Positions 978 to 49,420 of a stretch of DNA of 64,000 nt are shown in pieces. This DNA comes from Candidatus Adlerbacteria bacterium. GTDB taxonomy: Bacteria > Patescibacteriota > Minisyncoccia > Phycocordibacterales > SBAW01. The notes beneath the pieces are model-generated. The model searched no databases, was not told the DNA's origin, and saw nothing but the letters and a program-made list of their open reading frames with translations. Where the stretch lies: positions 299-64,298 of the forward strand of contig CAINNF010000008.1 of assembly GCA_903851045.1 (NCBI GenBank). The letters are read 5' to 3'. Position 1 is the stretch's first letter, and each line of letters starts with the position of its first letter. Both the position numbers and the translations under genes were made by a program.

Positions 978-1364
978 CTATGCAATAGTCGGTAAGCCCC
1001 GTATCAACTCAACCACCGCGCCGGGGGTCACTTGTACTTTCTCTAAAAATGCTTGCGCGCCAAGTTGTATCGCTTTTGCCTTATTTTCGGGTGTCGCATC
1101 GTTCGAGAAGATGATGACAGGGACTGTCGAGAGTGTGTTGTCTTGTCTGAGCTTCTCAAGAACCTCAAAGCCGTCCATGTCCGGCATGGTGATATCAAGT
1201 AGTATCACGTTCGGCCGAGTCCCCTTCGCCAGGACATCGAACGCTACACGACCGCTCGAAGCATACACGCACGACATACCCTCTTGAGTTAATTTATTAC
1301 CGATCACATCGATAAAAACACTGTCATCATCGACACATAAAACGATTGGCTGTTGGGTGCTCAT
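978..1364 (-). CDS. Response regulator, receiver domain only (CheY-like)
   Basis: 128 aa. Acidic pocket VLCVDDD, phospho-acceptor context ILLDITMPDMDGFEVL, conserved S/T (IIFSND) and K (ENKAKAIQLGA). No output domain. Confidence 0.8.
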   Translation of the reverse strand: MSTQQPIVLCVDDDSVFIDVIGNKLTQEGMSCVYASSGRVAFDVLAKGTRPNVILLDITMPDMDGFEVLEKLRQDNTLSTVPVIIFSNDATPENKAKAIQLGAQAFLEKVQVTPGAVVELIRGLPTIA

Positions 1365-1396
1365 ACGGTAAGTATTTCATAGAAATAACGGGGGCG

Positions 1397-3040
1397 CTAG
1401 ACCTGTGCCGCAGATGCGCCAAGGGCGGGGATCTCAACTATGAATGTGGAACCGGTGCCCGACCCGCGCGATTGCGCATAGACACGGCCATGGTGGGCCT
1501 CGACGATGGATTTGACTATAAACAGCCCGTATCCTGTCGAGTGAGGGTTGATCTTGAGCGAATCAGTACCCCTCCCGCCCTCAGTGAACAGCTTCTGCAT
1601 GTCTGCGGGTAGAATACCCACACCCGAATCAGCCACCACCACGCGTACGACATCCACGTCCCGCTCAAGTCGTATCGTTATAGACCCTGTCGGGGTATAC
1701 CGAACGGCGTTGTCGATTAGATTATGTATCACGTGATTACCAAGCTGTCCTGGATCGCCCATTACCATATACGAACCCTCCGGCGCGACAAGGGTGTACT
1801 GCAACCCCTTCCCTTCTGCAGATGGACGCACGTCCTCGAACACCCGTTGCACCTCCGTCTTTAGATCAAAGGGCTGCATCGTAAAATTCGTTAACCCTTT
1901 CTTAAAACTTGCAGCTCCCAAGATCTCGGTCACCGTGGTGAGGCCTGTGTGCATCTCTTCGCGCTCCTGTGTCGCCAACTTCTTGAGCGCGGGCGAGATT
2001 GGCCCGTAGTCCTCCTCCGCGATAGCGGTAAACCCGACGAGGCTTTTGCCAAAATACCCCTTCACTTCGTGCGCGATAAAGTGGATGAGATTTTCTTGGT
2101 TGCGATTGGCGTCTTGGAGATTGGTGTTCACTACCTCGAGCTCTTTTTCTTGATGCTCAATTTGTTCGCGCGAGCGTACTTCATTTTTGACACTCCTGAC
2201 CAAAAAGAATCCTATAACGAGCATCGCCAGCAAAATGCCACCGTCGACGACACGAGCGTCCATTGATTCTTCGCCGAACATCTTCGCAAACAGTATCAAC
2301 TCGATCATTACTACGAGTGCCTGCGTGAGGATCACTTTGATATTGAAGAGTTGATAGGTCGTTATTGCGTACGCGGTGAGCGCTAAAAAGACGAGCGAGT
2401 ACAGTGGCGACAGCGGGAGGAACAGCATGGAGTTGAAGAAGACAAGCGGCACTAAGATCGTCACGATAATGAGCGTTAACATGACCAACACACCTATCAA
2501 CACGAGTCGAATTTGCTTTCGCACGACACCCGTTGCGCGCCAATACGCACGCGCCAGCAAGAGGCATGCCAGCAGGCTAAAGAATGTGGACAGAACAGAG
2601 AACGGTATCATGCCGACACCCACGAGCGGCTCTGGCACGCCATCGACGATATGCACACCAACGAACGCGTAGGGGGACGCATTGATGCCAGCAACAAGAG
2701 CGGTCGACACGATGGTGCACCACAGCCACCCTCGGTGCAACCGAAGAGTGGGCGACGGTAAGGTGTGTGCGAGGAGAAAAAAGAACGCGCTCATCAGTGC
2801 CGCAACCACGATACCAAACCGATGGAACAGAAGCGCCATCCCCAACACCAGTGGCTGACGCACCACATAGATATCCACCAACCAGAGCGTCGTGCACAAC
2901 GTGAGCAAAGCAAAGATACGATTCGTCGCACTGTGCGTATCGCTGCGGTACACCGCAACAGCAAGAAATACGTTCGCAACGATTGCGATGGTCAACACTA
3001 CCGTGTACAACAACGTGTCGTGTATGAAGAGTGTCGACAT
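1397..3040 (-). CDS. Sensor histidine kinase with multi-TM (about 7-8 helices) N-terminal sensor region
   Basis: 547 aa. Long hydrophobic N-terminal half. H-box FIAHEVKGYF. HATPase_c N/G boxes HNLIDNAVRYT, DSGVGI, GYGLFIVKSIVEAHHGRV...GSGTGSTF. Immediately upstream of the receiver gene on the same strand. Confidence 0.85.
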   Translation of the reverse strand: MSTLFIHDTLLYTVVLTIAIVANVFLAVAVYRSDTHSATNRIFALLTLCTTLWLVDIYVVRQPLVLGMALLFHRFGIVVAALMSAFFFLLAHTLPSPTLRLHRGWLWCTIVSTALVAGINASPYAFVGVHIVDGVPEPLVGVGMIPFSVLSTFFSLLACLLLARAYWRATGVVRKQIRLVLIGVLVMLTLIIVTILVPLVFFNSMLFLPLSPLYSLVFLALTAYAITTYQLFNIKVILTQALVVMIELILFAKMFGEESMDARVVDGGILLAMLVIGFFLVRSVKNEVRSREQIEHQEKELEVVNTNLQDANRNQENLIHFIAHEVKGYFGKSLVGFTAIAEEDYGPISPALKKLATQEREEMHTGLTTVTEILGAASFKKGLTNFTMQPFDLKTEVQRVFEDVRPSAEGKGLQYTLVAPEGSYMVMGDPGQLGNHVIHNLIDNAVRYTPTGSITIRLERDVDVVRVVVADSGVGILPADMQKLFTEGGRGTDSLKINPHSTGYGLFIVKSIVEAHHGRVYAQSRGSGTGSTFIVEIPALGASAAQV

Positions 3041-3042
3041 GG

Positions 3043-4107
3043 TTAGTGGGTCGCGTCGCGTATCGTTGGCGGCAACTTGAAAGCGTGTGCGGATGGTGCA
3101 GCGCCATATCCCATGCGCACGATCATCGCGATATGCTCGGACGGGTGTACGGTGCCGAGCGTACGAATCTGCTCATCACACGCCAGTATCAGCTCCTGTT
3201 GCTGCGATGATAAATCTCCCGCATCATGCGCCCGCACGCGCTGCGCCAAATATGGAAGCGCGGTGACCGGCTGCATCGACACGCCCACGCTCGTCGCGGT
3301 CAGCCACAGTCGTTGGAGCGCCCTGCCCGCCTCGAGGAATTGGTCATCGGTATCCGCGGGAATCGTGAGTATTCCGATAGCCGAAGACGCTGCGTAGACT
3401 CGAGCACTTTGTGTGGCAATCGATTGTGAGAGTCCGAACCGATTTAAAAATCGTACCACCATCCAGTGACGCAACACGTACTGCAGTAACACACGTACCG
3501 GTGCCGGAAACTCCATCGTCTTCACGTACATACCCGGAGTTCGACGCTCTTGCGCACGTGTCCAGCGAATGACTCCAAACAAAAATGCATGCAGCGGACG
3601 ATACTCCATCAACAATTGTTCGTTCATACTAAACGTCCGCGCGAGTGTCTCCACCGCGTCGCTATCTTCCACGAGACGCACTGTCACTGAGGGAGTCGCG
3701 TGCACCGAATCCAGCAGTGCGTGGCGATGTGCATCATTAAGAGGCTCGGCACGGTACGACTTGCGATTGGTCGACCGGTGTTGGATCGCCTCACACAGTG
3801 GCTCCACGGTGGGCATCGCGGGCGAGAAGGTCAGCCGAGCGGTGGCGTGTGGGGCAGGAGGAAACGGTTCTATCGCGACCGCATACCCAGCCTGTGCGGC
3901 AAGCAGCCGTATGTTCTCGACGACCGCACCGTGGCCAACATACGAGCCGCGTTCCTTAAAGTTGTATAGCGTACCGTCTCGCTTAGGGACATTGTAAAGC
4001 GTCACGTCGCGGTCGGTAATGACGAATTCCCACGGCTGCGTGTTGTCCCCCGATGGGGCGTGCACTGCGCGCTGGAGTATGTTGTGCAACGTGCCATATG
4101 CAGGCAT
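3043..4107 (-). CDS. Nitroreductase-family protein, apparently two tandem nitroreductase-fold domains
   Basis: 354 aa. N-terminal motif RAVHAPSGDNTQPWEF is typical of the nitroreductase/SagB-like FMN oxidoreductase superfamily. The length is about twice a single domain. Confidence 0.65.
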   Translation of the reverse strand: MPAYGTLHNILQRAVHAPSGDNTQPWEFVITDRDVTLYNVPKRDGTLYNFKERGSYVGHGAVVENIRLLAAQAGYAVAIEPFPPAPHATARLTFSPAMPTVEPLCEAIQHRSTNRKSYRAEPLNDAHRHALLDSVHATPSVTVRLVEDSDAVETLARTFSMNEQLLMEYRPLHAFLFGVIRWTRAQERRTPGMYVKTMEFPAPVRVLLQYVLRHWMVVRFLNRFGLSQSIATQSARVYAASSAIGILTIPADTDDQFLEAGRALQRLWLTATSVGVSMQPVTALPYLAQRVRAHDAGDLSSQQQELILACDEQIRTLGTVHPSEHIAMIVRMGYGAAPSAHAFKLPPTIRDATH

Positions 4108-4136
4108 GGCTGTAGTATACTACGGGTGTAGGCGCC

Positions 4137-5600
4137 ATGGCATCACCCGCACGCACACGCACCTCGACCCACCAAACGAAGAGGGTGACAGACTCCTTCG
4201 AAAACGCTCTTTCACTATTTCATGAGACGTCGCAGCGCGTGCCAGCATACAAAGATTTTTTACGTAAAGCGAAGATACGCCCCGACCGTATCAAGACTCT
4301 ATCTGATTTCGCTCACATTCCGCCAACCGACAAGCAAAACTATATCTTGACATACGATCTGCAAGATCTCTCGTGGGACGGTACCCTCGACGGCACAAAG
4401 TACATCTCTTCAAGTTCTGGTTCGACGGGTACTCCCCTCTATTGGCCGCGAGGCGATGTGCAAGGTGACGCCGCGGGACGTATCTCACAGCGCGTCTACG
4501 AAAACATCTTCGATACGAAACATGGCACTACTCTGTGCATCAATCTGTTTGGATTGGGTACGTGGATAGCAGGTCTCGAGTTCTATAACGCGGCAAAATA
4601 TGTCGCGGATCATGGGAACCGTATCAGTATCGCAACGCCCGGCATTGAAAAAGAGGTCGCGATCGACACCATCAAGCGTCTCGCGCCGTCGTTCGACCGC
4701 ATCGTGCTGATGGGATATCCGCCGTTCATCAAAGACGTGCTCGAGACTTGTGCGGCCGAGGGCATCGAGTGGCCAACATATGATGTACGACTACTCACCG
4801 GGGGCGAATCCTTCAGCGAGCGATGGCGCGACCGCGTACTCACACTCATCGGGAAGCCACACTCGCTCACACACGTCATCAACGCCTATGGTATGGCCGA
4901 AAGTGGCATCATCGGACACGAGACACCGCTCTCGCTCCTTGCCCGACGCGCCAGCCCCTCCATCCCCACGTTGGCTGAGCGATTCGCCTACGAAGGTACC
5001 ACTGCGGCGCTCTATCAGTACGATCCGCGACTGCGCTACTTTGAAGTCGGTCACAACGACACACTGATACTGACAACTCGCGCGGGACTCCCGCTTGTCC
5101 GATACAACACGCGTGACCAAGGCGGCATCATAGCGCACGGCGACATGGCAACGCACCTCGCGTCGTTGTCGGTACCTGCACCGAACCTGTTGCGAGCCAC
5201 ACCGTGGCGGTTACCGTTCGTGTATCTCTACGGACGCCGCGATCTCTCGATCTCATTTTATGCACTCAATATATATGTCGAGAATGTGAAGTACGCCTTC
5301 GAGACGTGTGCCGCGTCGCACCAGCTGTCTGGACTCTTTGTCATGCAGATCGAACATACACGCGACCTCGACCAACGGTTCACCATTACTGCCGAACTTG
5401 GACGCGAAGCGCAGCCGCACCCAACATTGACACGCGAAGTCACCACACACCTCGTGCGCGCACTACGCTCGGTGAATACGGAGTACGCGAAGCTCCACGC
5501 GTCTATCGGCCAACGCGCGGTACCGAAGGTGCGCATGGTACGCTACGGAGAGATAGACACCTTCCCCGGCAGGAAACATCGTTGGATCAAACGGGTGTAA
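4137..5600 (+). CDS. PaaK/coenzyme-F390-synthetase/CapK-family adenylate-forming enzyme
   Basis: 487 aa. N-terminal VPAYKDFLRKAKIRP...IPPTDKQNY. P-loop-like SSSSGSTGTPLYW. Family-typical stretch NLFGLGTWIAGLEFYNAAKYV...IATPGIEKEV. Confidence 0.7.
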   Translation: MASPARTRTSTHQTKRVTDSFENALSLFHETSQRVPAYKDFLRKAKIRPDRIKTLSDFAHIPPTDKQNYILTYDLQDLSWDGTLDGTKYISSSSGSTGTPLYWPRGDVQGDAAGRISQRVYENIFDTKHGTTLCINLFGLGTWIAGLEFYNAAKYVADHGNRISIATPGIEKEVAIDTIKRLAPSFDRIVLMGYPPFIKDVLETCAAEGIEWPTYDVRLLTGGESFSERWRDRVLTLIGKPHSLTHVINAYGMAESGIIGHETPLSLLARRASPSIPTLAERFAYEGTTAALYQYDPRLRYFEVGHNDTLILTTRAGLPLVRYNTRDQGGIIAHGDMATHLASLSVPAPNLLRATPWRLPFVYLYGRRDLSISFYALNIYVENVKYAFETCAASHQLSGLFVMQIEHTRDLDQRFTITAELGREAQPHPTLTREVTTHLVRALRSVNTEYAKLHASIGQRAVPKVRMVRYGEIDTFPGRKHRWIKRV

Positions 5601-6657
5601 ACGCCGACTCCAACCCCATCACATATCGACCCGACGGCATCGGGAGGTCATTGGTGATACGACGCACCACGTATGCGACCGCTGCCCCCGCCATGACCGC
5701 GGCGGTGCCGAGCTGCGGAACACCCGAGAGCGTCTTCCCTATCTGAGTAATCGAGTCCCACTGTCGCATGGTGAAATACTTCGGGTCGATGATCTCGTTG
5801 GCCATCGCGATAAACTTCTCGCGCGTAATGTGCTCCAACTCCGCTTCGGCGAAATGTACGCGCCCATGGAAAATGGGCCGCCCGGGCTCTTGGTCAAACC
5901 GCTCGACGTCGATGATAATGCTGTCGCCGTTGTCGGTCACCATCACGACCGGTATACCCAGCTCTTGGCACACGACGCGCGAACGCAGCTTCATCTTGAT
6001 ATCGTCCATCTCGTCGACAAACACGTCGAGCCGTGGCGACCCCATAAATTGCTGCAACGTGTCGTGCGTCACGCCCGCTGGCCACTGCTCGAGAGTAATA
6101 AACGGATCCACCTCCCATGCGGCGCGCGCAGCGATAGTGACCTTACTTTCGCCGACATCAAGCAGCGTCGCGCGGATGCGATTGAGATTCGTGATTTCTA
6201 AGATGTCCGGGTCAGCGATCTTGATATGCTGTGGGCCACCGGTCGCCACCAATGCACCGAGCGCCGCCGAACCAACCGACAACCCCGCAATGCCGACCGT
6301 CGCTGCACGATAGCGCTCTTGCTCTGTTGGAGTAATCAAATTGCGATTGCGCGCGGTGCGGAGCCGGTGGTAGAGAGCATCGCTTGGCGTATGCACCGCC
6401 ACATCGCGCCACGGATAGTACACCCACACGCCCGCGTCGGTATGCTCGCGGATAAAAGATTCGACCACACTCGTGTCCGCAGCACTCTTAGATACCTCGG
6501 GATGCTCGATAAAAAATAATTCGCCCAAAGCGCTGTGCATCACATCCATACGTCGAGCACTCGCTGGCACCGCTGACTCAGTAGTAAAAAACACCGGCCT
6601 CTGCGCTGACGTTGTCTCCATGCGCACAGTATACACCGACTCCACATCGCAGAGCAC
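5587..6657 (-). CDS. ThiF/MoeB/HesA-family E1-like adenylyltransferase with about 110-aa N-terminal extension
   Basis: 356 aa. Rossmann nucleotide motif VGIAGLSVGSAALGALVATGG, then IKIADPDILEITNLNRI, which is typical of the E1-like superfamily. Confidence 0.75.
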   Translation of the reverse strand: MLCDVESVYTVRMETTSAQRPVFFTTESAVPASARRMDVMHSALGELFFIEHPEVSKSAADTSVVESFIREHTDAGVWVYYPWRDVAVHTPSDALYHRLRTARNRNLITPTEQERYRAATVGIAGLSVGSAALGALVATGGPQHIKIADPDILEITNLNRIRATLLDVGESKVTIAARAAWEVDPFITLEQWPAGVTHDTLQQFMGSPRLDVFVDEMDDIKMKLRSRVVCQELGIPVVMVTDNGDSIIIDVERFDQEPGRPIFHGRVHFAEAELEHITREKFIAMANEIIDPKYFTMRQWDSITQIGKTLSGVPQLGTAAVMAGAAVAYVVRRITNDLPMPSGRYVMGLESAFTPV

Positions 6658-6872
6658 GCTGGTGTTGGGCGCACAATCATCTCGACCAGATTACTGACAC
6701 CGTGTGGCGCGATAAGCGTAACATCTCCATCACTGGTGGTTACGGCGACGACGGTTGCTGTCTCTGGCCATGTCGAGATAGCATCTGACGAAGAGGCGAA
6801 CGGGGAGGAGCCATTGACGACATGCATCCTCGCTTCGTTTTTGCACGACCGTGCGATATCGAATTGACGAAA

Positions 6873-9392
6873 CTACCTCCCCGCCATCAGTCGCCGATGC
6901 TCTTCGGTATTCTTCATGCCGCAGTTCTTCCATTTCTTGCCTGAACCACAGAGGCAAGGGTCGTTCCTGCCCAGCGTCGCTTCAGTTGAGTTGGGGTTAC
7001 CACTGGTGGCACCCACGTCGATAACCTCTCCGTTCGAAAGTTCTATCGTGGTGCTCGGGATCGGTTGTGCTATATGCGACGGCACCTGCTCGACCACCTG
7101 TGCCGACAGCCCCATAAGGAGCGTGAAGACGCGGTCGACGAGCATCGCTTCCATCTGCTTATATATCCTTGTCCCCTCTTTGCGATACTCAGTGAGCGGG
7201 TCGCGTTGCCCATAGGCGCGCAGATTGACCGAGCCGCGCAAGTACTCCATCGACTCGAGATGCTCGACCCAGAGCAGGTCGAGCGTCTGGAGTATCGCAC
7301 CACGCATCGAAAAGAGAAGCGGTTCGCGACCAAGCTCGTCCAACTTTTTTTGCAACAACTCTTTCGCCTCTACGTGCTCACCTGCGAGCTCCCAGAGCAC
7401 ACTCTCGACATCGTCGAGCGTGCCGATGAGTATCTTGTGGCGACGATCATAGACGGCGCGGCGCTGCTTGTCGAGGATGTTGTCGTATTCCAACACGTGC
7501 TTTCGTGCGTCGAAGTTGAACCCTTCGATCTTCGTCTGAGCGCTCTCCAGTGCTCGACTGACCATCGAATTTTCTATCGGTTCGTCCTCGGGGATACCGA
7601 AGCGCCCCATAAGCCCCTTGAGCGAGTCGGGAGCGAAGACGCGCATAAGGTTGTCCTCCAGTGAGACGAAAAACTGTGTCTCGCCTGGGTCGCCTTGTCG
7701 GCCCGCGCGGCCGCGCAGCTGGTTGTCGATGCGACGCGCTTCGTGACGCTCGGTACCGAGCACGAAGAGGCCCCCGAGCGACTTTATCTCCTGCGCCTCC
7801 TCTGGCGTCGCCAGGGGCCCACCGAGCTTGATGTCGACACCACGACCTGCGATGTTCGTCGCGACCGTGACCTTGCCTCGCTTACCGGCAGCAGCGATGA
7901 TCTCGCCCTCGCGTTCGTGGTTCTTGGCATTGAGTATCTCGTGCGGGATCCCTTCGCGCTTGAGGTATGCGGACAGGAGTTCGTTCTTCTCGATCGAGAC
8001 GGTGCCGACCAGCACCGGCTGTCCCTTCTCATGCAGTGCCTTGATCTGACGAGCAAGCGCCTGGAACTTGCCCTTCTCGGTCTGAAAGATGAGGTCGTTA
8101 CGGTCGATGCGCTTCACCTCGCGGTTGGTCGGTATCTCGACGACATCGAGTTGATACACCTTGTAGAACTCCTCCGACGAGGTCTTCGCGGTACCCGTCA
8201 TGCCCGCGAGCTTGTCGTATAATCTAAAATAGTTTTGGTATGTGATGGAGGCATAGGTGCGCGATTCCTTTTGGACCGCGACCCCTTCTTTTGCCTCGAT
8301 CGCTTGATGGAGGCCCTCGGACCAGCGTCTCCCCGGCTGCATGTGGCCGGTCGCTTCGTCGACGATGATGACCTCGTTGTTCTTAACGACATACTCTTTA
8401 TCATGACGAAAGAGCGCCTTGGCACGGACCGCTGTCTCGAGGTGGTGCACGAGCTTGATGCCGTGTTCGGTGTAGATATTATCAACCCCGAGCAGCTTCT
8501 CGGCATGTTCGATACCGTGGTCGGTCAGCTGGATCGCCTTGAGCTTCTCGTCGACCGTATAGTCCTCCTCGGGAACAAGCTTGGCTGCGATGTCGGCGAA
8601 CTTTCGGTAGAGATCCTCGGACTCCGCGGTCGGTGCGGAGATGATGAGCGGTGTACGAGCCTCGTCGATAAGGATAGAGTCGATCTCGTCGACGACCGCG
8701 AAGTAGTGGCCGCGCTGGCGAAGTTCGTTGGTGTCGTACGAGATATTGTCGCGCAGGTAGTCGAAGCCGAACTCCGAGTTCGTACCGTAGGTGATATCCG
8801 CCTCGTACGCCTTGGCGCGCGAGATGGGGCGCATGAACTCATGGAAGACGCGGAAGCTCCCCTCCTCATCACGCATAGCGTCGAGTTCGGTATGCGACGG
8901 GTCATAGAGGTATGAGGCGTCGTGATTGATGATGCCGACCGACATACCGAGTGCCGCATAGACCTGGCCCATCCACACCGCATCGCGTCGCGCGAGATAG
9001 TCGTTAACGGTCACCACGTGCACTCCCTTGCCCGCAAGCGCATTGAGATAGACCGGCAGTGTCGCGACGAGCGTCTTACCCTCTCCCGTCTTCATCTCCG
9101 CTATGCCGCGGTTGTGGAGCGTTATACCGCCGATCATCTGCACATCGAAGTGGCGCAACTTCACGGTGCGGCGTGCCGATTCGCGCACCGCAGCGAACGC
9201 CTCGGGTAGGAGGTCCTCGATGGTCTCGCCTTCGGTCAGGCGATTGCGAAACCCCTGCGTCATATCGCGCAAGGCTTCATCCGAAAGCGCCTGCATGTGA
9301 GGCTCCAGCGCACTGATACCGTCTACCGTTTTAGCATGCTGGCGAAGGGTTTTTTTGCCCTCATCGCCGAAAAGGTTCGAAAGTTTGAACAT
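6873..9392 (-). CDS. secA: Preprotein translocase ATPase SecA
   Basis: Clear SecA homology throughout: DEAD-like motor, preprotein cross-linking domain, and C-terminal Zn finger CLCGSGKKWKNCG. The start is moved to the internal MFKLSNLFGDE (ATG at 9392), which matches the canonical SecA N-terminus. The longer track ORF (to 9503) would run through a 14-bp hairpin. Confidence 0.93.
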   Translation of the reverse strand: MFKLSNLFGDEGKKTLRQHAKTVDGISALEPHMQALSDEALRDMTQGFRNRLTEGETIEDLLPEAFAAVRESARRTVKLRHFDVQMIGGITLHNRGIAEMKTGEGKTLVATLPVYLNALAGKGVHVVTVNDYLARRDAVWMGQVYAALGMSVGIINHDASYLYDPSHTELDAMRDEEGSFRVFHEFMRPISRAKAYEADITYGTNSEFGFDYLRDNISYDTNELRQRGHYFAVVDEIDSILIDEARTPLIISAPTAESEDLYRKFADIAAKLVPEEDYTVDEKLKAIQLTDHGIEHAEKLLGVDNIYTEHGIKLVHHLETAVRAKALFRHDKEYVVKNNEVIIVDEATGHMQPGRRWSEGLHQAIEAKEGVAVQKESRTYASITYQNYFRLYDKLAGMTGTAKTSSEEFYKVYQLDVVEIPTNREVKRIDRNDLIFQTEKGKFQALARQIKALHEKGQPVLVGTVSIEKNELLSAYLKREGIPHEILNAKNHEREGEIIAAAGKRGKVTVATNIAGRGVDIKLGGPLATPEEAQEIKSLGGLFVLGTERHEARRIDNQLRGRAGRQGDPGETQFFVSLEDNLMRVFAPDSLKGLMGRFGIPEDEPIENSMVSRALESAQTKIEGFNFDARKHVLEYDNILDKQRRAVYDRRHKILIGTLDDVESVLWELAGEHVEAKELLQKKLDELGREPLLFSMRGAILQTLDLLWVEHLESMEYLRGSVNLRAYGQRDPLTEYRKEGTRIYKQMEAMLVDRVFTLLMGLSAQVVEQVPSHIAQPIPSTTIELSNGEVIDVGATSGNPNSTEATLGRNDPCLCGSGKKWKNCGMKNTEEHRRLMAGR

Positions 9393-37576: not shown

Positions 37577-40500
37577 TTATTGTTTCTTAGTTATTATACT
37601 TGGAGTTGAGTTTGCAACACCAAATGGATTGGTCGAAGGTGTAGATGAGAACGATCCGAATGATGTACTTGATTTAGAACTATTTGAAGCAGCCACGGCA
37701 GCAACAAAACCAGTTGCTACCATTTGTGTGCCTACTCCTACAAATTCTTGTGCTCCATTCATGGTAGTGTGTGATCCTGTATAGAACGCAGTGGAGCCAA
37801 AACTTGGAAGCCTTCCTGGGGTACCCGGAACAGTACCCTTTAATACTCCTCCTGTCACTCCAGTCACTACAGATTGATAAGCAAGGGTCCCGTAGTTAGT
37901 CTGCTTATTTGTAATGTAGTTTACTCCAGCAGTGGTAACAAAGTTAGCTGCTCCTGCTGTGACACCAACAGCAACAGCTCCGGCTCCCAATATACCTGCG
38001 GTCGCAGAACTTGCACCAACCACGGCACCCGTCACAGCACTACGTGCATAATCTTGAGGCGAAGAAAGGTTTGAGTAAAAATCACTTGGCCTTAACCCAT
38101 TTTGGTTGATATTGCCTAATACATCGGAACCATATTGGCTAACGCCTCCAGCAACAAATCCTACTCCAGCTGCGATACATATAACTACAGCAGGACCTGC
38201 ACATCTCCCGTTTGGATCTGATTTATTTATTGGATTGTCATTTGCATAGGAATATGAGTTAAGACTTTGAGGATCAGAAAGATTTTGCTGAGTCTCCCAG
38301 AATACCGGGTCTTCGCTAATAAACTGACCGCGAGTTGGCGATTGATATCGGGCCTGCATGTAGTTTAAACCGCTACCCGCGTCATACTCAGTGCCAGCAT
38401 ACTTGCGCTTCTCCCCTTGGTAGGCGCCTGCCTTCGTGTCGAGTCTGGTTTGTCCATACGGATAGTAATCAAGCGTCTCGATGACATTACCCGCACTGTC
38501 AGTAATGATGTTGGAGCCAGTGAGATTGTCGGTCGCGATGTAGCGGACGGTGGTGGTTGCGGTGGTGGTGCCGCCGGTGGTTGATGTAGTAACTAGTGGC
38601 TTGAACGTCGCCATGACTGCGGCCCAGGGTCCGCTGGTTGTGGTGGTGAGTTTGGCTGCTGTTGTTGAAGCGGTGGTTATGGTCGTGTCCTCGGTCGCGA
38701 GTCGCTCGTGGGTGTCGTTGTCGTCTTGGTGTTGGCGCACGGTGTAGCTGGGGGCGGGTGTCCAGGTGTCCCCCGTAGTGGCGCTCCATGCGGCTCCTAC
38801 GTAGAGTTCACTGCCGAGTGTGGTGGTGACATTGCCGGGGTTCGGGTAGCCCGTTGCTCCCGTACTGGACGCTATTTTGTCCAGTGGTGAGGATGTCGCA
38901 ACGCCTGAGTACTCTTGGACTGCAATGGATGCGGCAGTAGCGGAGGTCACGGTGAAGGAGGAGCCTCCCGTGACGTTCTTCGCGTAGTAGAGGGCGACGT
39001 GGTCACCACCGTTGGTGGTGTTCACTGCTTCGTTGATCTTGGTATAGGTGTTGCCCTTGGAGTCGGTGATGTCGTTTGCGGGGAAGGTGGTGCCGAAGAC
39101 TGATACCGCAACAACGACGAGGTCGCCTTGGGTGACAGGGTTGGGGAAAGTGACGGAACCTATGGTGCTATCGATATTCCCTTGGACGAACGTGGGGGTG
39201 GAGGTAGCTGTGGTCGTGCCTCCCCCGCTACTGGTGGCGCTGGTATTCTCAATCGTTGCCAGGTCGAGATCGTTCGCGTAGATGTGCTTGGTGGTGGTGC
39301 CTACTCCCCCGAGTTGGACGTTGTAGAGCGTGTTAGGGGTGATGGTCGTGATGGTGCCTTCGGTGAACTTGATGCGATTGCCTTGGTAGTCGTAGGCGTA
39401 GGTGGAGGTGGCCAGGCCGTTGCCTGACTGGATGAGGCGGTTGTTGTAGTCCCAGGCGTAAGTGTTGGTGCCGTCGCTCAGGAGGTTGCCATTTTGGTCG
39501 TAGGTGAGCGTGGTGGTGGCGGTCGTGGTCGCAGTGCCTCCAGCGGCGGTTGTTGTGGCCGCCCGAAGTGCTACCAGGAGCATCGACCAGTCTTGGCTGG
39601 TTGCGCCAGTGTAAGTGTCGGAGTAAGTGCTGGTGGTGGTTGCTACCTGGTAGCTGGCGGCACCGAATATCGAGCCAGTGAGGTCTTTGTAGAGCGAAGT
39701 GCGACTGGTCGTCGCGTCGACCGTCGAGTAACGTGAAAGCGTGGCGGTCACGAGGTCTCCACCGGTAACATTGGAGAGACTGATGGTCGGGTTGCCGCTA
39801 AGGCCGGTCGCAGATGCGACCTTTTCGATCGGTGATACGGTGGCCACACCGCTGAAGGATGCGACCGCGAGCTTAAAGCCGTCGGTAGCACCCGTTACCG
39901 TCACCGACACCGTCTTAGAGCCAGTCGTTGTGGCGACAAGATACCACACCTCCGACGCTATGCCGACCATGCGAGTAGAGGTCGCTTTGGTGAACGACGC
40001 GCCGTTCCATGTGGCAGAGGTGATGGTGCCAGTGCCTCCGACATCCTGCCAGATGTCTGCATACAGGACGAGCATACTACTACTGGTCGCCACAGTCTGT
40101 GTCCACGTCTTGGTGACCGGGCCAGCGTTGTAGCCAGCGTTCGTACTGGTCGACGTAGCACCCCACACAACAGTCGAGGTCGAGACACCACCCGCCATGG
40201 TCGAGGTCGAGAAGGTCGTGAGCGCAGTCACCGCATCTGGATTCGCATAGTTGGAGCCTGTGTTGCCCGTGTAGAGATAACTACCCAAAGGGCCGCTGGT
40301 GATATTGCCCAGCGAGTCATAAGTGTAGGTTTGGTTGAAGGCTCCATTTCCAACAATAGCAGTCGATGCAGATAGAAGACGATTAAGACCATCGTAGGTA
40401 TACACAACCATTTGACCGTTCGCCAGGTCAGAGTTGTCGGTACGAGAAATGATATTACCATTTGGATCATAGACGTAATGTAGATCCTGCGTCTTTGTAT

Positions 40501-43500
40501 AATGGGTACTCGTCGCGAACGTGTTCGTTACCGTGAATGTACCGCCCATGGTATACGTGCAGATAGTATCAACACCGGAGGTGGAGGCTGTCCCGCCACA
40601 AGTATAGTCAGCGGCGTTCGCCGTAGGATATCGAATGATGACGATGCCAGACCCGCCCACGCCGCCAGGCCCATTATTCGGACTTCCGCCACCTCCGCCA
40701 CTACCGGTATTCGGAGTCCCCGCACCTCCACTGTAACTTCCACTTCCGTTGCCACCGCCTCCCACACCGCCTGTGCCTCCCACGAGCCCTCCGCCGCCTC
40801 CACCACCTCCCGCATAATATGTTGCTATACCTGTAATACTACTCTGTATACCAGTACCACCATTTGCACCATATCCACTCACGGTTGCATTATTGCCGCT
40901 TGAGCCTGCCCCTCCGCCACCGCCCGAGGCATTACCAACCCCGGTACTTGCACCACCGGAATTCCCTTCCCCATTGACAGAACTTCCTCCTACTCCACCC
41001 GTTATATACCCTGTTCCAGCTCCGCCACCAGACCCTCCGCTTCCACCAGGAAGTGAGTGACCGTACCCGTCTGTTGCGCTGCCATATCCTCCGCCAGCCG
41101 CAGAGACCAGAATGCCGATAGAGCTCGTAGCTCCTTGCGAGCCATTACCAGAAACCGTCGCGGGTCCTCCGGCTCCGCCGCTTCCGACCGTCACCGTATA
41201 GGCTCCAGGCGGGATACTTATCGAAGAACTGCTTATGACCCCGCCAGCACCTCCACCTCCGCCACCATTACCGTTATTTGCACCTGAGCCACCGCCACCA
41301 CCTGCAACCACGAGAATTTGTACTGGGTTATTCTGTGCGATCGTTGTTGTTGCAGCCGCGTATGACAGCTTTGCTGTCAAGCGATACAACTGGGTAGGAT
41401 CGTACGTGTATGTTGTAGTAGCACCAGACCCAGTGATCACTTGTGTATATTGACCTGTCGGAATATATCCAGAGTACATCGCAAGTATTTTAGACGACCC
41501 GCCGTTCTCTTTTTCCCATACTGAATCAAGTAATCCTGCGCTATTAAAATTGTATTGCGCTTGAGCACTATCTGGATAGATTATAAGCGTCTGATTACCT
41601 TGGCGATCATATGAGTACTGTGTAACGAACGTTGTGCTCGTACCCACGACAGACTCGGACTCACCACTCTTGAGTCCAATCGGATTGTAGGTATATGCAA
41701 TTCTCGATGCGGTAGTGCTCGCAACACACAGTTGCCCGATACCGTTCATACACGAGTCGTAGGTATAGGTGACTTCTGTACCCGCTTGCCCTGTGTAGTC
41801 TTCAGTCAGTGAACGGTTGAGCGCATCGTAGGTGAAGTTTACCGTCTGGCTTTTCGGGTCCACTCGTTGTATGAGATTGCCGGCGGTGTCGTAGGAGTAC
41901 GACCAACTCCCAAATGTCCCATCACCCACCATATGAAGGTCTTCGGCCGTGAGTCTTCGATTGAGGCCGTCATATGTGAAATTGCGTACGTTCCCATTAG
42001 CGTCCGTGACCTTGGTAAGGTTGTTGTTAAGATCATAGATATACGTGATGGTTGCAGACGACGTGGCAGTACTATGTTCGACCACGGTGACTAAGTTACT
42101 GAACGCGTCGTTCGACAAATCTTTTACATTCCCGTTCGCATCAGTTATCACGGTGTGCCACGGCAGGTACGCATAGCCAGTCGTGCCGACCGCATTGACC
42201 GCAGTACTTACTCTCTGGAGCGAGTCATATGTATAGGTGGTGAGGAGCGAACTACTTGCCGTCGGCGACGTGTACGCGGTACTTGAGGCGAAATATGGCA
42301 ACGACTCTTTCGACAGGAGCGAGGCGGTGTTGTACACCGTATCCTTGACCACGTAGGTATTGTTCCCTGGCGCTTGAGTCCTCGTCTGTATCGTGCGCCC
42401 AAGCCCATCAAAATATTCATACGCCGTGGTACTACTTGCCGAAGACAAACGGTTCGTGGTGAGCGTGTATGACGGGAATGTGTTGTCCGTGTACGCGATG
42501 TCGGTCTTCACTACCAATGTGCTTGATGAAGTTTGGTCTGGCTGTTTGACCTGCACCAGACGCCCCACGGGATCATACACGTTCACATTCGTGAGGCCAT
42601 TTGGGTCTGTCGTTGTTGCGACCTTCCCGCTCGCGTAGTCGTAGTACACCTGCGAAGTCTGATTGAGTGCGTTCGTTGTCGACGCTGGGTAGTAGTTGAG
42701 AGCATCATACACATACTTCGTCAGATTACCGAGCGCATCAGTCGTCGTACCCACGAGCCCAAAGCTGTTGTACGCTCTGGTGGTACTCGCGTACGAGCTA
42801 CCCGATATCCAATTCTTTTCTTGGGTACGATTACCCGCACCTACTGATCCAAAAGAGAGGTTGTCGTAGAGATACTGCGTTTCCATTATTTTTGTACTAC
42901 CCACGTCCGTAAGAGTTATATCGTCGATCACATCCAGCGTTGTGCTGGCATTCGTCGCATACGTTATGTTTTTGATTACTGTATCACTCCCTACGTCCGA
43001 ATAGGTACCGTCCGAACTTCCCGACACCTCTCCCCGGTCGATCGACTGTGTCAAATCGCCCGTCGTGGTGGAATACGTATACTCGACCGCATGATCTTTG
43101 TGAGAGGAGCCCGAGCTATCAAATTCCTGGGTCATGTGTTTCGATAGGTACACGAATGAGCGACCGTTCCCTTCGTCAGTTGTATCCCATCGACTGAAAA
43201 TACGCTTCAGAAGAGTTCCGTCTGTCTTCTTGGTGTCTTGGCGAAAAACGTGCCCAATCTGTGGGTACCCGTCAGCCTGTTCACCGTCGCCAGCGGAAAC
43301 ACTATCACCCTGGTCATAATACGTGGTCAAGAGATAGTCTGGATGTGTTTCGGTGATTGTGTAAAAACCAGCAAATTTACGGTCCTGCGGAGCAGCGACA
43401 TTGAGATACAGCTTACCGCCACTGTAAGCATAATCCGTTTCTGTACTGTTTCCATCATTATCGTTGGTAACGATTTTCGACACCAACAGAAGTGACATGG

Positions 43501-44524
43501 GCATGTGCGAATTCGTGCCTGTTTGTGGTGATGGGACATATGACACCTGCGTATTGCCACCCTTGGGATAGGTAATTTGAGTAAGAACGTCTTGGCGGGT
43601 GGTATTGTTCCTTATATTTTCATTATCTGGTATCCCATCACCATCCCAATCGACATACTCGTTATTTCTTTCTGTGTCATATTGATCGTATATAGTCGCA
43701 TACGTGGGAAGCGCTATGGTACTTGTAGCCCAGCCTGAACCGGTATTTAACAAGACCAAATTAAATCCATTTGAAATTTCGGCATTTCCGTGTGTGTTTC
43801 CAGCAATGGGGCTATAGTATGAGCGAACAAAATCCGGCAATCCATCACCGTTAACATCCATAAACCGCATGCCTCGATCAAAAAACTGATGACTCCCTGT
43901 GTTGTAGTAATAGGTTGACGTTGCAAGATTCCAAACTGAAGAGCAGGTGCCTCCTCTTCCGACCCACCCTGTACCATTATTCAGACAAAAATAGGTATTG
44001 TTATTGTCCGAATACACCCAATCATCTAGACCGTCACTATTTACATCTATGAGTTGAGAGTTAGAAATAGGTCCATTAATGTCAGGCATGGGCATAACTG
44101 TCGGGAACAGGTCACTTGTTCTCCAACCACTTCCATTCCCTAAATAGGTACCGTCATAACCCTCTTCGTAAATATTTGATGCGTAGTCTACATATCCATC
44201 TCCATTGAAGTTTCCTAGGAGGCCAGCAGTAAGTGTGGCATATGCTCCTGGAAAATATACCGCCACAGGAGGTATGTTCAAGGTCGAAGTCGCAACGGAA
44301 GTGAACGTATACGCACCTGTTGTGCTTCCTGTGCTGTAATATAAAGTGGCACCATCGTGATTAACGTAACTATGCAAAACGTCGGCATATCCATCCCCAT
44401 TAACATCTATAAATCTTGTACCACTTTCATAAGCAGTTGTAGGATTACCAAAACATGCCAGGAATATGATGGGGGTGGAGTAACGCCGACACCATCTATA
44501 CCAAACGCAGGAGACCCGCCGCAC
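37577..44524 (-). CDS. Rhs/YD-repeat polymorphic toxin (TcB/TcC- or WapA-like), C-terminal portion of a gene split by a frameshift. FG-GAP/VCBS-like repeats, glycine-rich insert, YD repeats, Rhs core, glycine-zipper C-terminal toxin domain
   Basis: 2315 aa. Motifs FIDVNGDGYADVL, IDVNSDGLDDWVY, FMDVNGDGLPDFVR. Dozens of YD repeats (YTYDALNRSLTE, YVYDPNGNIISRTD, YAYDYQGNRI...). Rhs core YYPYGQTRLD...RYQSPTRGQFISEDP...DPNGR. About 208-aa hydrophobic Gly/Ala-rich C-terminus. Confidence 0.9.
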   Translation of the reverse strand: MRRVSCVWYRWCRRYSTPIIFLACFGNPTTAYESGTRFIDVNGDGYADVLHSYVNHDGATLYYSTGSTTGAYTFTSVATSTLNIPPVAVYFPGAYATLTAGLLGNFNGDGYVDYASNIYEEGYDGTYLGNGSGWRTSDLFPTVMPMPDINGPISNSQLIDVNSDGLDDWVYSDNNNTYFCLNNGTGWVGRGGTCSSVWNLATSTYYYNTGSHQFFDRGMRFMDVNGDGLPDFVRSYYSPIAGNTHGNAEISNGFNLVLLNTGSGWATSTIALPTYATIYDQYDTERNNEYVDWDGDGIPDNENIRNNTTRQDVLTQITYPKGGNTQVSYVPSPQTGTNSHMPMSLLLVSKIVTNDNDGNSTETDYAYSGGKLYLNVAAPQDRKFAGFYTITETHPDYLLTTYYDQGDSVSAGDGEQADGYPQIGHVFRQDTKKTDGTLLKRIFSRWDTTDEGNGRSFVYLSKHMTQEFDSSGSSHKDHAVEYTYSTTTGDLTQSIDRGEVSGSSDGTYSDVGSDTVIKNITYATNASTTLDVIDDITLTDVGSTKIMETQYLYDNLSFGSVGAGNRTQEKNWISGSSYASTTRAYNSFGLVGTTTDALGNLTKYVYDALNYYPASTTNALNQTSQVYYDYASGKVATTTDPNGLTNVNVYDPVGRLVQVKQPDQTSSSTLVVKTDIAYTDNTFPSYTLTTNRLSSASSTTAYEYFDGLGRTIQTRTQAPGNNTYVVKDTVYNTASLLSKESLPYFASSTAYTSPTASSSLLTTYTYDSLQRVSTAVNAVGTTGYAYLPWHTVITDANGNVKDLSNDAFSNLVTVVEHSTATSSATITYIYDLNNNLTKVTDANGNVRNFTYDGLNRRLTAEDLHMVGDGTFGSWSYSYDTAGNLIQRVDPKSQTVNFTYDALNRSLTEDYTGQAGTEVTYTYDSCMNGIGQLCVASTTASRIAYTYNPIGLKSGESESVVGTSTTFVTQYSYDRQGNQTLIIYPDSAQAQYNFNSAGLLDSVWEKENGGSSKILAMYSGYIPTGQYTQVITGSGATTTYTYDPTQLYRLTAKLSYAAATTTIAQNNPVQILVVAGGGGGSGANNGNGGGGGGAGGVISSSSISIPPGAYTVTVGSGGAGGPATVSGNGSQGATSSIGILVSAAGGGYGSATDGYGHSLPGGSGGSGGGAGTGYITGGVGGSSVNGEGNSGGASTGVGNASGGGGGAGSSGNNATVSGYGANGGTGIQSSITGIATYYAGGGGGGGGLVGGTGGVGGGGNGSGSYSGGAGTPNTGSGGGGGSPNNGPGGVGGSGIVIIRYPTANAADYTCGGTASTSGVDTICTYTMGGTFTVTNTFATSTHYTKTQDLHYVYDPNGNIISRTDNSDLANGQMVVYTYDGLNRLLSASTAIVGNGAFNQTYTYDSLGNITSGPLGSYLYTGNTGSNYANPDAVTALTTFSTSTMAGGVSTSTVVWGATSTSTNAGYNAGPVTKTWTQTVATSSSMLVLYADIWQDVGGTGTITSATWNGASFTKATSTRMVGIASEVWYLVATTTGSKTVSVTVTGATDGFKLAVASFSGVATVSPIEKVASATGLSGNPTISLSNVTGGDLVTATLSRYSTVDATTSRTSLYKDLTGSIFGAASYQVATTTSTYSDTYTGATSQDWSMLLVALRAATTTAAGGTATTTATTTLTYDQNGNLLSDGTNTYAWDYNNRLIQSGNGLATSTYAYDYQGNRIKFTEGTITTITPNTLYNVQLGGVGTTTKHIYANDLDLATIENTSATSSGGGTTTATSTPTFVQGNIDSTIGSVTFPNPVTQGDLVVVAVSVFGTTFPANDITDSKGNTYTKINEAVNTTNGGDHVALYYAKNVTGGSSFTVTSATAASIAVQEYSGVATSSPLDKIASSTGATGYPNPGNVTTTLGSELYVGAAWSATTGDTWTPAPSYTVRQHQDDNDTHERLATEDTTITTASTTAAKLTTTTSGPWAAVMATFKPLVTTSTTGGTTTATTTVRYIATDNLTGSNIITDSAGNVIETLDYYPYGQTRLDTKAGAYQGEKRKYAGTEYDAGSGLNYMQARYQSPTRGQFISEDPVFWETQQNLSDPQSLNSYSYANDNPINKSDPNGRCAGPAVVICIAAGVGFVAGGVSQYGSDVLGNINQNGLRPSDFYSNLSSPQDYARSAVTGAVVGASSATAGILGAGAVAVGVTAGAANFVTTAGVNYITNKQTNYGTLAYQSVVTGVTGGVLKGTVPGTPGRLPSFGSTAFYTGSHTTMNGAQEFVGVGTQMVATGFVAAVAASNSSKSSTSFGSFSSTPSTNPFGVANSTPSIITKKQ

Positions 44525-46506: not shown

Positions 46507-47407
46507 AGGTGGGGCACGGGACGTCGGGGCACGACAGCGACACGGGGCGGGCCTTCAGTGTGATGTTGTGGTGCTGTGCCACGCGCGCGATGATCTCTGC
46601 GCCGACGCTGAACGCGCGGTGCGTCGTATCGACCGTGATGAGTCTGCCGGTCTTCTTCACCGACGCGAACACGGTCTCGTAGTCTATCGGGTTGATACTC
46701 ACGAGGTCGATGATCTCTACACCCGCGTGCGTGCCGATCAGCTCGCGCGCCTGGAGCGTCGCAACGAGTCCGTCGCCGTAGGTCACCACCGTGACCATGT
46801 CTCCCGTGACGACCACGCGTGCCTCATCGAGCGGCACCGTGTACGACTCCTCGGGCACCGCCTGTTTGGTCCCGTACAGCCAACGAGGTTCGAGCATGAC
46901 GACCGGGTTGTTGTCCGCGATAGCGGACGCGAGCAGACCTTTCGCCAGGTAGGGTGTCGACGGGATGACGACCTTCAGTCCTGGCACACTGCCAAAGAGC
47001 GCGTGGAGCGCCTGTGTGTGTTGCGGCCCATTCCCCCACTGCCGACCAAGGGCGATACGAAAGACGATCGGTACCGGGTTGCCGCCGCCGAACATGTAGT
47101 TCCACTTCGCCGCCTGGGTAAAGATAGGATCGTACGCGAGCATCGCGAACTCGACGCGGCCATGGTGCACGATCGGTCGCAGTCCGTTGATGGCGGCACC
47201 CACCGCCATGCCCGTGAACGCGTTCTCCGAGACCGGCACGTCGAGTATGCGGTCGGGATATTTTACCTTCAGCCCCGCGGTCGTCCCATCCGCGCCGTTG
47301 GGGTAGGAGACGCCAAGGCCGATGACGAAGACCGACTGGTCCTTCTCCATCGCCTGGTCGGTCGCCTCTTTCAGCGCTTCGGTGTATTTGATGATTCGCT
47401 CAGGCAT
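46253..47407 (-). CDS. 2-oxoacid (pyruvate/acetoin) dehydrogenase E1 component beta subunit (transketolase-like) with Pro/Thr-rich about 60-aa C-terminal tail
   Basis: 384 aa. Motifs VFVIGLGV...DVPVSENAFTGMAVGAAINGLRPIV...VVMLEPRWLYG. The tail SPNHTITIEPSPIPSTVLMTVPPEKEHPRQIEDAPTDKTTTQRPR is not part of a canonical E1 beta. Confidence 0.85.
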   Translation of the reverse strand: MPERIIKYTEALKEATDQAMEKDQSVFVIGLGVSYPNGADGTTAGLKVKYPDRILDVPVSENAFTGMAVGAAINGLRPIVHHGRVEFAMLAYDPIFTQAAKWNYMFGGGNPVPIVFRIALGRQWGNGPQHTQALHALFGSVPGLKVVIPSTPYLAKGLLASAIADNNPVVMLEPRWLYGTKQAVPEESYTVPLDEARVVVTGDMVTVVTYGDGLVATLQARELIGTHAGVEIIDLVSINPIDYETVFASVKKTGRLITVDTTHRAFSVGAEIIARVAQHHNITLKARPVSLSCPDVPCPTSTALTETYYPTKIDIANAILRLFGKTPLATKLSFEELHLSPNHTITIEPSPIPSTVLMTVPPEKEHPRQIEDAPTDKTTTQRPR

Positions 47408-49391: not shown

Positions 49392-49420
49392 TGGCTTGAA
49401 GTATAGTGTAAAACTAATCA

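Follow-up and report, generated by a model that had tools for sequence, protein, structure and literature searches.

Gene content of the locus

The element under study is a block of five tightly packed genes at positions 978-6657 of a 64,000-nucleotide stretch of DNA (hereafter the window; contig CAINNF010000008.1, positions 299 to 64,298 of the forward strand). It comes from a Candidatus Adlerbacteria bacterium, a member of the Patescibacteria or candidate phyla radiation (CPR). According to the list of open reading frames (ORFs) and domain searches, the block encodes a ThiF-like protein, an adenylate-forming enzyme with the PaaK fold ("PaaK-like" in short), a nitroreductase-fold flavoprotein, a sensor histidine kinase and a receiver protein (Table 1). 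A preliminary description of positions 3043-6657, made from the sequence alone, had the ORF coordinates and gene descriptions right.

The flavoprotein gene directly precedes the kinase gene with a gap of 2 nt, and the receiver gene follows the kinase gene 32 nt downstream. The PaaK-like gene is transcribed from the opposite strand; its start is located 29 nt from the start of the flavoprotein gene, and it overlaps the ThiF-like gene by 14 nt. Gene callers place the start of the ThiF-like gene at 6549 (320 aa); homologues are 340-375 aa long, and the true start therefore probably lies between 6549 and 6657.

Table 1. Genes of the five-gene block in the window, and methyltransferase-like accessory genes found at related loci
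Feature	Position	Strand	Evidence
Stand-alone receiver, CheY-like response regulator, 128 aa	978-1364	-	Pfam Response_reg 84 bits
Sensor histidine kinase, HisKA_7TM	1397-3040	-	Pfam PF16927 31.2 bits, PF02518 79 bits
Acg-like double nitroreductase-fold flavoprotein, 354 aa	3043-4107	-	Pfam PF00881 47 bits
PaaK-fold adenylate-forming (ANL) enzyme, 487 aa	4137-5600	+	Weak AMP-binding/PaaK signal, AlphaFold2 model
ThiF-like protein, maximal ORF 356 aa	5587-6657	-	Pfam ThiF 67.9 bits, NF005901 278 bits
Methyltransferase-like separate genes at other loci	L098:11655-12620, L166:12411-13409, L064:6098-7063, L025:16082-17233		

The ThiF-like protein and the flavoprotein match the two halves of an oxazolone synthase

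Oxazolone biosynthesis was discovered only in 2020-2025; the physiological role of the products is, according to the authors, a major unresolved question, and they speculate about signalling (PMC12856293). The founding example is OxzAB of Pseudoalteromonas rubra (de Rond et al., bioRxiv 10.1101/2020.06.11.147165). In mycobacteria, TrzS (Rv1355c) is a fusion of a ThiF cyclase and a flavin oxidase for which conversion of N-acyl-tryptophan to an oxazolone has been demonstrated experimentally, with ATP-dependent cyclization preceding O2-dependent desaturation; together with the N-acyltransferase TrzA (Rv1356c), it produces N-acyl tryptazolones from L-tryptophan and acyl-CoA (Kleetz et al. 2025, PMC12856293). 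TyzACB (Rv2336-Rv2338c) is the split equivalent and makes N-acyl tyrazolones (Grigg et al. 2023, PMC10404671). The acylating enzymes TrzA, TyzA and OxzA share a fold resembling that of FeeM and N-acyl homoserine lactone (AHL) synthases, and the substrates of TrzS, TyzBC and OxzB are free N-acyl amino acids rather than ribosomal peptides (PMC12856293, PMC10404671). The 'MoeY/MoeW' annotations of Mycobacterium tuberculosis turned out to belong to oxazolone enzymes (PMC10404671, PMC12856293).

The ThiF-like protein matched the NCBIfam model NF005901, 'Rv1355c family protein', with 278 bits over model positions 24-339 of 722, compared to 70 bits for the next model. Its ThiF domain spans residues 103-239 and is preceded by an N-terminal extension of ~100 aa (Pfam, NCBIfam). 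Three motifs were recognized: the nucleotide-binding glycine motif GIAGLSVGS (residues 122-130), NLNR with its arginine (157-160) and the acidic DEMDD (215-219). Across 25 homologues, E216 and D218 of the last motif are invariant and D215 is nearly so. This motif aligns with VDAVDD of the ThiF-fold domain in the solved structure 8ide, and it is the counterpart, mapped by motif only, of the adenylation-motif aspartate mutated in TrzS (D217A). Both the ATP-binding and the adenylation motifs are intact, and the protein is predicted to be an ATP-dependent cyclase of the TrzS/TyzB type.

Among solved structures, those that match the ThiF-like protein best in sequence include TcdA, an ATP-dependent cyclizing dehydratase. 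TcdA/CsdL uses ATP to activate the carboxylate of an N-carbamoyl amino acid in tRNA t6A and closes a five-membered ring (PMC12596934). It differs from the system described here in its tRNA nucleoside substrate and the lack of a flavoprotein partner, and the similarity is weak (~25 bits). The best such matches overall were 9egb, 9egc and 9egd (264-265 aa, E ~1e-6), which are titled only 'THIF-type NAD/FAD binding fold domain-containing protein'. Anti-phage defence of the E1 type was considered as well and rejected, since PADLOC returned only generic E1 matches of at most 24 bits.

The flavoprotein matched positions 376-711 of the same 722-position model NF005901 with 180.6 bits, and a second model of ThiF fusions, PRK14851, with 183.7 bits. 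Both scores exceed that of the Acg family NF047509 (167.3 bits over residues 10-337), which is below the 199-bit cut-off of that family. The general N-terminal flavin-site motif of nitroreductases, HAPSGDNTQPW, is present at residues 16-26, and the solved Acg structure 2ymv was a match. The preliminary description had labelled this protein SagB-like. No SagB-type family was found among its NCBIfam matches at E<=0.01, and it was assigned instead to the Acg-like flavin-dependent oxidase (FDO) group. The description had also mentioned a standard Acg/FMN reductase as an alternative. This is borne out for the Acg-like fold, but the protein groups with ThiF-linked oxidases, and the closest 150 cluster representatives include two ThiF-flavoprotein fusions, P0352 and P0401. 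We propose that the flavoprotein may act as a Cα-Cβ desaturase.

One model is thus matched in its N-terminal half by one minus-strand gene and in its C-terminal half by another, and the two genes therefore represent a split version of a known fusion, with an opposite-strand gene between them. The correspondence to TrzS of M. tuberculosis, Mycobacterium smegmatis and Rhodococcus includes the N-terminal extension, whereas the interrupted arrangement sets the locus apart from TrzAS. A similar layout is known from TyzACB, in which TyzB (ThiF) and TyzC (flavin-dependent oxidase) are separate proteins and the gene for the acylating enzyme lies on the opposite strand; the NCBIfam scores nevertheless favour TrzS/OxzB-type models. 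OxzAB likewise combines a ThiF domain with a nitroreductase-fold domain and converts an N-acyl aromatic amino acid to an oxazolone, but its OxzB is fused.

A different framing had been given in the preliminary description, namely maturation of a ribosomally synthesized and post-translationally modified peptide (RiPP), or cofactor tailoring. The E1-like protein would then recognize or activate a precursor peptide, the nitroreductase-fold enzyme would oxidize azolines and the PaaK-like enzyme would tailor the peptide. Pairs of E1-like and nitroreductase-fold proteins do occur in thiazole/oxazole-modified microcin (TOMM) and microcin B17-type pathways. RiPP ThiF-like enzymes are treated in a review of the ThiF family (PMC12596934). 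However, both enzymes of the locus match the TrzS family specifically, and YcaO, SagB-type and Ocin_ThiF-like families were not among the NCBIfam matches of the module proteins; Pfam likewise gave no YcaO or SagB-type match. With gaps of 2 nt and 29 nt and an overlap of 14 nt, there is no intergenic room for a precursor. The suggested scan for small ORFs revealed no plausible candidate in 6500-6900, and clustering across 122 related loci returned only shadow ORFs of flanking genes. The statement that the module holds no YcaO, precursor-like or ThiS/MoaD-like ORF was confirmed, and none is conserved across these 122 loci. RiPP maturation is accordingly considered very improbable. The chemistry behind the earlier framing, in which ATP-dependent cyclization by an E1-like enzyme and dehydrogenation by a nitroreductase-fold enzyme give a heterocycle, is close to that of the nearest characterized relatives.

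Conserved linkage and fusion of the module genes

Homologues of the PaaK-like enzyme were scanned in one genome per species, and the best 80 of 537 confirmed relatives were kept. Six-frame ORFs of the loci were searched with profiles built from the module proteins. Linkage was counted for loci with at least 4 kb of flank on both sides, with partners scored within 5 kb in this PaaK-anchored set. ThiF-anchored loci were drawn from metagenome contigs and counted when both flanks were complete.

Among the PaaK-anchored CPR loci, the ThiF-like gene was found in 21 of 22, the kinase gene in 18 and the flavoprotein gene in 17. These loci span Saccharibacteria, Paceibacterota, Magasanik-, Niyogi-, Yanofsky-, Lloyd-, Nealson- and Wirthbacteria. 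By contrast, none of the 24 non-CPR loci (Methylococcus, Amycolatopsis, Lentzea, Microcoleus and Chloroflexia) had a ThiF-like or flavoprotein gene nearby, and a kinase of this type was present in only one. Anchoring on the ThiF-like gene gave a comparable result, with the kinase in all 21 loci, the flavoprotein in 20 and the PaaK-like enzyme in 19. At least nine gene orders were distinguished among 58 non-redundant loci. The most common, found in 15 loci, is that of the window (ThiF, PaaK-like on the opposite strand, flavoprotein, kinase). The most conserved adjacency was that of flavoprotein and kinase, the kinase gene lying directly downstream in 44 of the 58 loci. Clustering of all neighbouring ORFs of the module loci did not reveal a further widely conserved partner. 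With dozens of independent Patescibacteria loci and many gene orders, the co-occurrence is far beyond chance, and the three enzymes form a real functional unit. The preliminary description would have been refuted had homologues of the three genes never been found together in other genomes; they do co-occur there.

This linkage also bears on canonical sulfur-carrier activation. Under that explanation, the ThiF-like protein would serve molybdopterin or thiamin synthesis as a MoeB/ThiF enzyme, its partner gene would lie at a distant site, and the adjoining genes of the block would have nothing to do with it. The Pfam ThiF domain agrees with such a role, and homologues are automatically annotated as 'molybdopterin/thiamine biosynthesis adenylyltransferase'. 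However, the ThiF and MoeB equivalog models scored 32-47 bits against cut-offs of 159-437 bits, no ThiS/MoaD or other beta-grasp ORF is encoded nearby, and the protein lacks the zinc-binding CxxC as well as a conserved catalytic or sulfur-transfer cysteine, its only cysteines being at positions 3 and 230. Since the gene is linked to three others in a conserved manner, a chance neighbourhood is excluded. The sulfur-carrier role, raised as an alternative in the preliminary description, was rejected as extremely improbable.

Fused versions of the two proteins were observed in Patescibacteria, including a ThiF-flavoprotein fusion in a metagenome-assembled genome of the Saccharimonadales (L014). 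The fusions P0352 and P0401 match the Rv1355c model end to end, with 452 and 443 bits. At the P0352 locus, located on a CPR assembly, the order is receiver, ELFV (Glu/Leu/Phe/Val) dehydrogenase, PaaK-like enzyme, ThiF-FDO fusion, seven-transmembrane (7TM) kinase and receiver. The ThiF half of this fusion is 35% identical to the ThiF-like protein of the window over 327 residues (37-355). The PaaK-like enzymes of the two loci are 33% identical and the kinases 25% over their full length. TrzAS is found in Actinomycetota, whereas the module belongs to Patescibacteria.

The PaaK-like enzyme, its replacement and accessory genes

The sequence signal of the PaaK-like enzyme is weak, with 17 bits for AMP-binding and 41.8 bits for the PaaK equivalog TIGR02155, the cut-off of which is 646.3 bits. 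An AlphaFold2 model built from 74 homologues reached a predicted local distance difference test (pLDDT) score of 89.4, and Foldseek matched it to BT_0428 and PaaK1/2 (4r1l, 2y27, 2y4o) with TM scores of 0.62-0.72. Further matches were 2-hydroxyisobutyryl-CoA ligase, ClxA and the amide synthetase McbA. The ANL motifs are SSGSTG (residues 93-98), YGMAE (251-255), RYNTRD (322-327) and the invariant C-terminal lysine K480. In fold and motifs, the enzyme thus resembles PaaK, BT_0428, ClxA and 2-hydroxyisobutyryl-CoA ligase, but it differs from the PaaK-fold ligases in its low identity to them (15-19%) and in an equivalog score far below cut-off. Unlike PaaK, it is found in a module without paa catabolic genes, and its genomic role is apparently N-acylation. 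We propose that it makes an N-acyl amino acid. ClxA and McbA, both among the structural matches, are PaaK-fold enzymes that join acyl groups without CoA, which makes it conceivable that the PaaK-like enzyme forms the amide directly.

In TrzAS, the acylating step is carried out by the FeeM/AHL-synthase-like TrzA, which the module lacks and in place of which it has the ATP-dependent PaaK-fold ligase. TyzA likewise is an acyl-CoA-dependent acyltransferase and not an adenylate-forming enzyme, and OxzA is an N-acyltransferase. An acylating enzyme is encoded next to most oxzB homologues, a feature that the module would share with them.

The two ThiF-anchored loci without the PaaK-like gene carried a member of another protein family (340-359 aa) in its position. 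In total, six distinct loci lacked the PaaK-like gene, and every one of them had a member of this family of ~345 aa, with the genes arranged as ThiF, family member, flavoprotein, kinase; the family was never seen together with the PaaK-like gene. It is small (18 clusters) and had no Pfam, NCBIfam or PDB sequence match. A fold search with its AlphaFold2 model (pLDDT 89.6) returned almost only acyltransferases of the GNAT fold, with the AHL synthase LasI as the best match (E 9e-3, probability 0.89) and FeeM and TofI also listed. For TyzA, structural neighbours of these kinds, namely FeeM and an AHL synthase, have also been reported (PMC10404671). At these variant loci the PaaK-like gene is replaced one-for-one by the GNAT-like gene; the window has the PaaK-fold ligase in that position and no GNAT-like gene. 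In view of this mutual exclusion in the same slot, the simplest reading is that the two are alternative routes to an N-acyl amino acid. Two of the GNAT-like loci also have a gene of the benzoate-CoA-ligase family after the kinase gene.

Accessory genes were observed at some loci. An ELFV dehydrogenase is encoded directly upstream of the PaaK-like enzyme at L015:8843-9904, L029, L046, L073, L011, L149, L157 and L169:3452-4495, and a class I/II aminotransferase takes its place at L084:6823-7902. These genes may hint at which amino or 2-oxo acid enters the pathway. Some flavoproteins (P0262, P0343, P0407) carry a C-terminal fusion to a domain of ~320 aa with a glycine motif, NLGCGGMEVER, like that of S-adenosylmethionine-dependent methyltransferases. 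The same domain is a separate gene in six module loci, often just upstream of the kinase gene (Table 1); it had no Pfam match. In P0280, weak sub-threshold Pfam matches to methyltransferases were seen in the N-terminal region before the flavoprotein domain. The window has no ELFV dehydrogenase, aminotransferase or methyltransferase-like accessory gene. Taken together, the accessory genes fit a small-molecule pathway that starts from amino acids and has optional tailoring steps.

The ligases also bear on the possibility that the module processes compounds from a host or the environment. The enzymes would activate and convert an imported aromatic acid or N-acyl amino acid, either to take it up, to detoxify it, or to mimic or quench oxazolone-type molecules of the host, and the kinase would sense this external compound. 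Ligases of the PaaK and benzoate-CoA-ligase types use aromatic acids, which agrees with this view, and most Patescibacteria live as episymbionts and can synthesize little themselves (PMC11665869). Cultivated Saccharibacteria, moreover, have Actinomycetota as their hosts (PMC10633639), a group in which oxazolone pathways are common (PMC12856293). On the other hand, the module occurs in many classes of Patescibacteria, whose hosts probably vary, the enzyme set amounts to a complete biosynthetic route, and clustering of neighbouring ORFs showed no transporter or catabolic genes conserved with it. Overall, we consider compound processing unlikely.

Outside the CPR, the neighbourhoods of PaaK-like homologues (Methylococcus, Amycolatopsis, Microcoleus) were heterogeneous and offered no consistent functional clue. 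In Microcoleus vaginatus (L057:7738-14047), the homologue is flanked by a Ser/Thr kinase, a histidine kinase with a MASE1 domain and a receiver-EAL protein. It is thus again located beside membrane signalling proteins, with ThiF and the flavoprotein not nearby.

The sensor kinase and the receiver

The kinase has an N-terminal polytopic HisKA_7TM domain (residues ~10-281), an H-box, HFIAHEV (320-326), and a HATPase domain (435-539). The PF16927 score is above the cut-off of 28.6 bits, and hydropathy analysis revealed 7-8 membrane segments within residues 10-281. Conservation among the module-linked kinases of other loci extends beyond the catalytic core to the 7TM sensor region. Some of these kinases are long, with an insert of ~220 aa, and one carries a GAF domain. 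The receiver has no output domain, and receiver genes are found beside the module in many, though not most, related loci. As already noted in the preliminary description, the flavoprotein is co-encoded with the kinase, and this holds at most of the related loci. The kinase, an integral and conserved part of the module, distinguishes it from TrzAS; TyzACB and OxzAB have no linked sensor kinase either. The mycobacterial TrzAS locus does adjoin signalling genes, for cyclic di-GMP turnover, and a signalling role has been raised by the authors (PMC12856293).

The position of the kinase gene could alternatively point to redox or flavin sensing, in which the Acg-like flavoprotein is the input partner of the kinase (for example for O2 or redox state) and the ThiF-like and PaaK-like enzymes make or modify its ligand or cofactor. 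F390 synthetase, a relative of PaaK, adenylylates a deazaflavin. The close association of flavoprotein and kinase, the most conserved adjacency at the 58 loci and a 2-nt gap in the window, speaks for this explanation, as does the presence of Acg-family proteins with an occluded flavin site in the mycobacterial hypoxia regulon (PMC10404671). However, it leaves unexplained why the PaaK-like gene is replaced by a GNAT/AHL-synthase-like acyltransferase and why amino-acid dehydrogenase and methyltransferase accessories occur, and the nearest characterized relatives are biosynthetic (PMC12856293). Redox sensing is therefore an improbable explanation of the module.

A proposed oxazolone pathway linked to a sensor

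On balance, we lean towards the hypothesis that the module is a Patescibacteria variant of the oxazolone pathways of the OxzAB/TyzACB/TrzAS kind, joined to its own two-component sensor. The redox-sensor and compound-processing alternatives each explain less of the data. In the proposed pathway, the PaaK-fold enzyme would adenylate a carboxylic acid, probably an aromatic or short acyl one, and couple it with the amino group of some amino acid, either directly or through CoA, to give an N-acyl amino acid. The ThiF-like enzyme would then adenylate the carboxylate of this product, so that the amide oxygen closes a 5(4H)-oxazolone, as suggested by homology to TrzS, TyzB and OxzB. Subsequently, the Acg-like flavoprotein would oxidize the Cα-Cβ bond, giving an unsaturated oxazolone, a step likewise predicted from homology. 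Finally, and speculatively, the 7TM kinase and the stand-alone receiver may serve to detect the lipophilic product or the precursor of it, or they may regulate the pathway. The three enzymatic steps would be those of TyzACB, i.e., acylation, cyclization and desaturation.

Several observations weigh against this hypothesis. The flavoprotein scores almost equally on the Acg family model, and neither split half reaches the cut-off that the Rv1355c model sets for full-length proteins, a result to be expected of split genes that does not prove equivalence. Five of the 22 PaaK-anchored loci have no flavoprotein gene within 5 kb. The fold matches of the GNAT-like model are weak, none reaching E<=1e-3. 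Co-transcription alone could account for the linkage of the kinase, and sensing of the product by the kinase is speculative. The flavoprotein domain of TrzS requires O2 (PMC12856293), whereas anoxic life is common among Patescibacteria. The PaaK-like enzyme could instead produce a CoA thioester, to be used by an acyltransferase whose gene lies at another site. Moreover, homologues with 33-39% identity exist in Gammaproteobacteria, Actinomycetota, Cyanobacteria and Chloroflexia without a nearby ThiF-like or flavoprotein gene, so that membership of the PaaK-like family does not in itself mark an oxazolone enzyme. These sequences do stand apart, however: of 48 PaaK-like sequences without a nearby ThiF-like gene, 44 formed one clade in a neighbour-joining tree, separate from the module-linked sequences.

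The consistent presence of the kinase hints that the product of the pathway is a signal. We tentatively suggest, as a more specific and rather doubtful possibility, that the module is a self-contained chemical signalling circuit. The enzymes would make a membrane-soluble oxazolone or an N-acyl amino acid precursor, the 7TM kinase would be its receptor, and signalling would proceed via the stand-alone receiver. CqsA/CqsS and LuxM/LuxN are pairs of an autoinducer synthase and a membrane-embedded kinase receptor. They resemble the module by analogy only, with the synthase of a small lipophilic molecule beside a polytopic histidine kinase without a large extracellular domain; none of their components is homologous to those of the module. 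If the suggestion is correct, no native pair of small-molecule synthase and receptor would precede it in the CPR, and it would provide the first receptor, and hence the first physiological role, for bacterial oxazolones. Such a circuit might serve in sensing of kin density or hosts. Since the kinase is encoded at nearly every locus, the signalling hypothesis is directly testable.

The papers on TrzAS, TyzACB and OxzAB do not mention Patescibacteria, a ligase or a kinase, and no link between oxazolones and Patescibacteria or Saccharibacteria was found in the full-text literature. ThiF, nitroreductase, histidine kinases and two-component systems were likewise unmentioned in the CPR literature examined. 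Three features of the module were not found in the searched literature. First, the core of ThiF cyclase and flavin oxidase is widespread in Patescibacteria, a group noted for minimal biosynthesis. Second, an ATP-dependent PaaK-fold ligase stands in for the usual acyl-CoA-dependent acyltransferase. This non-orthologous displacement points to the PaaK-like proteins as a new family of amide-forming enzymes of ~490 aa without a Pfam model. Third, nearly every locus couples the enzymes firmly to one particular type of 7TM sensor kinase. The module thereby offers CPR biology a defined small-molecule system for study.

Other features of the window

Genes for SecA, MurB and a Wzy_C/TPR protein come next after the five-gene block. 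Downstream of the receiver gene, a 104-aa ORF is located at 603-917 on the minus strand, which the gene callers also predict (103 aa). It had no Pfam, PADLOC or meaningful NCBIfam match and is not a conserved partner at other loci. The G+C content is 43% in the first 1 kb of the window, compared to 56-59% in the module. No tRNA genes and no Rfam families at the gathering threshold were detected across the 64 kb (ARAGORN, Rfam), and a promoter and terminator scan gave counts equal to the shuffled expectation.

Further along on the minus strand, positions 37577-45900 hold two overlapping genes, the first for an SpvB-like protein of 497 aa and the second, directly downstream, for an RHS-repeat protein of 2315 aa that has a glycine-rich domain and DUF6443. 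The pair resembles a Tc-toxin or polymorphic-toxin locus, here in a small-genome bacterium. Finally, a 690-aa ORF at 47400-49472, also on the minus strand, has a zinc alcohol-dehydrogenase domain at residues 53-364 followed by a domain of the E1 component of 2-oxo-acid dehydrogenases (382-680), a pairing that seemed unusual.

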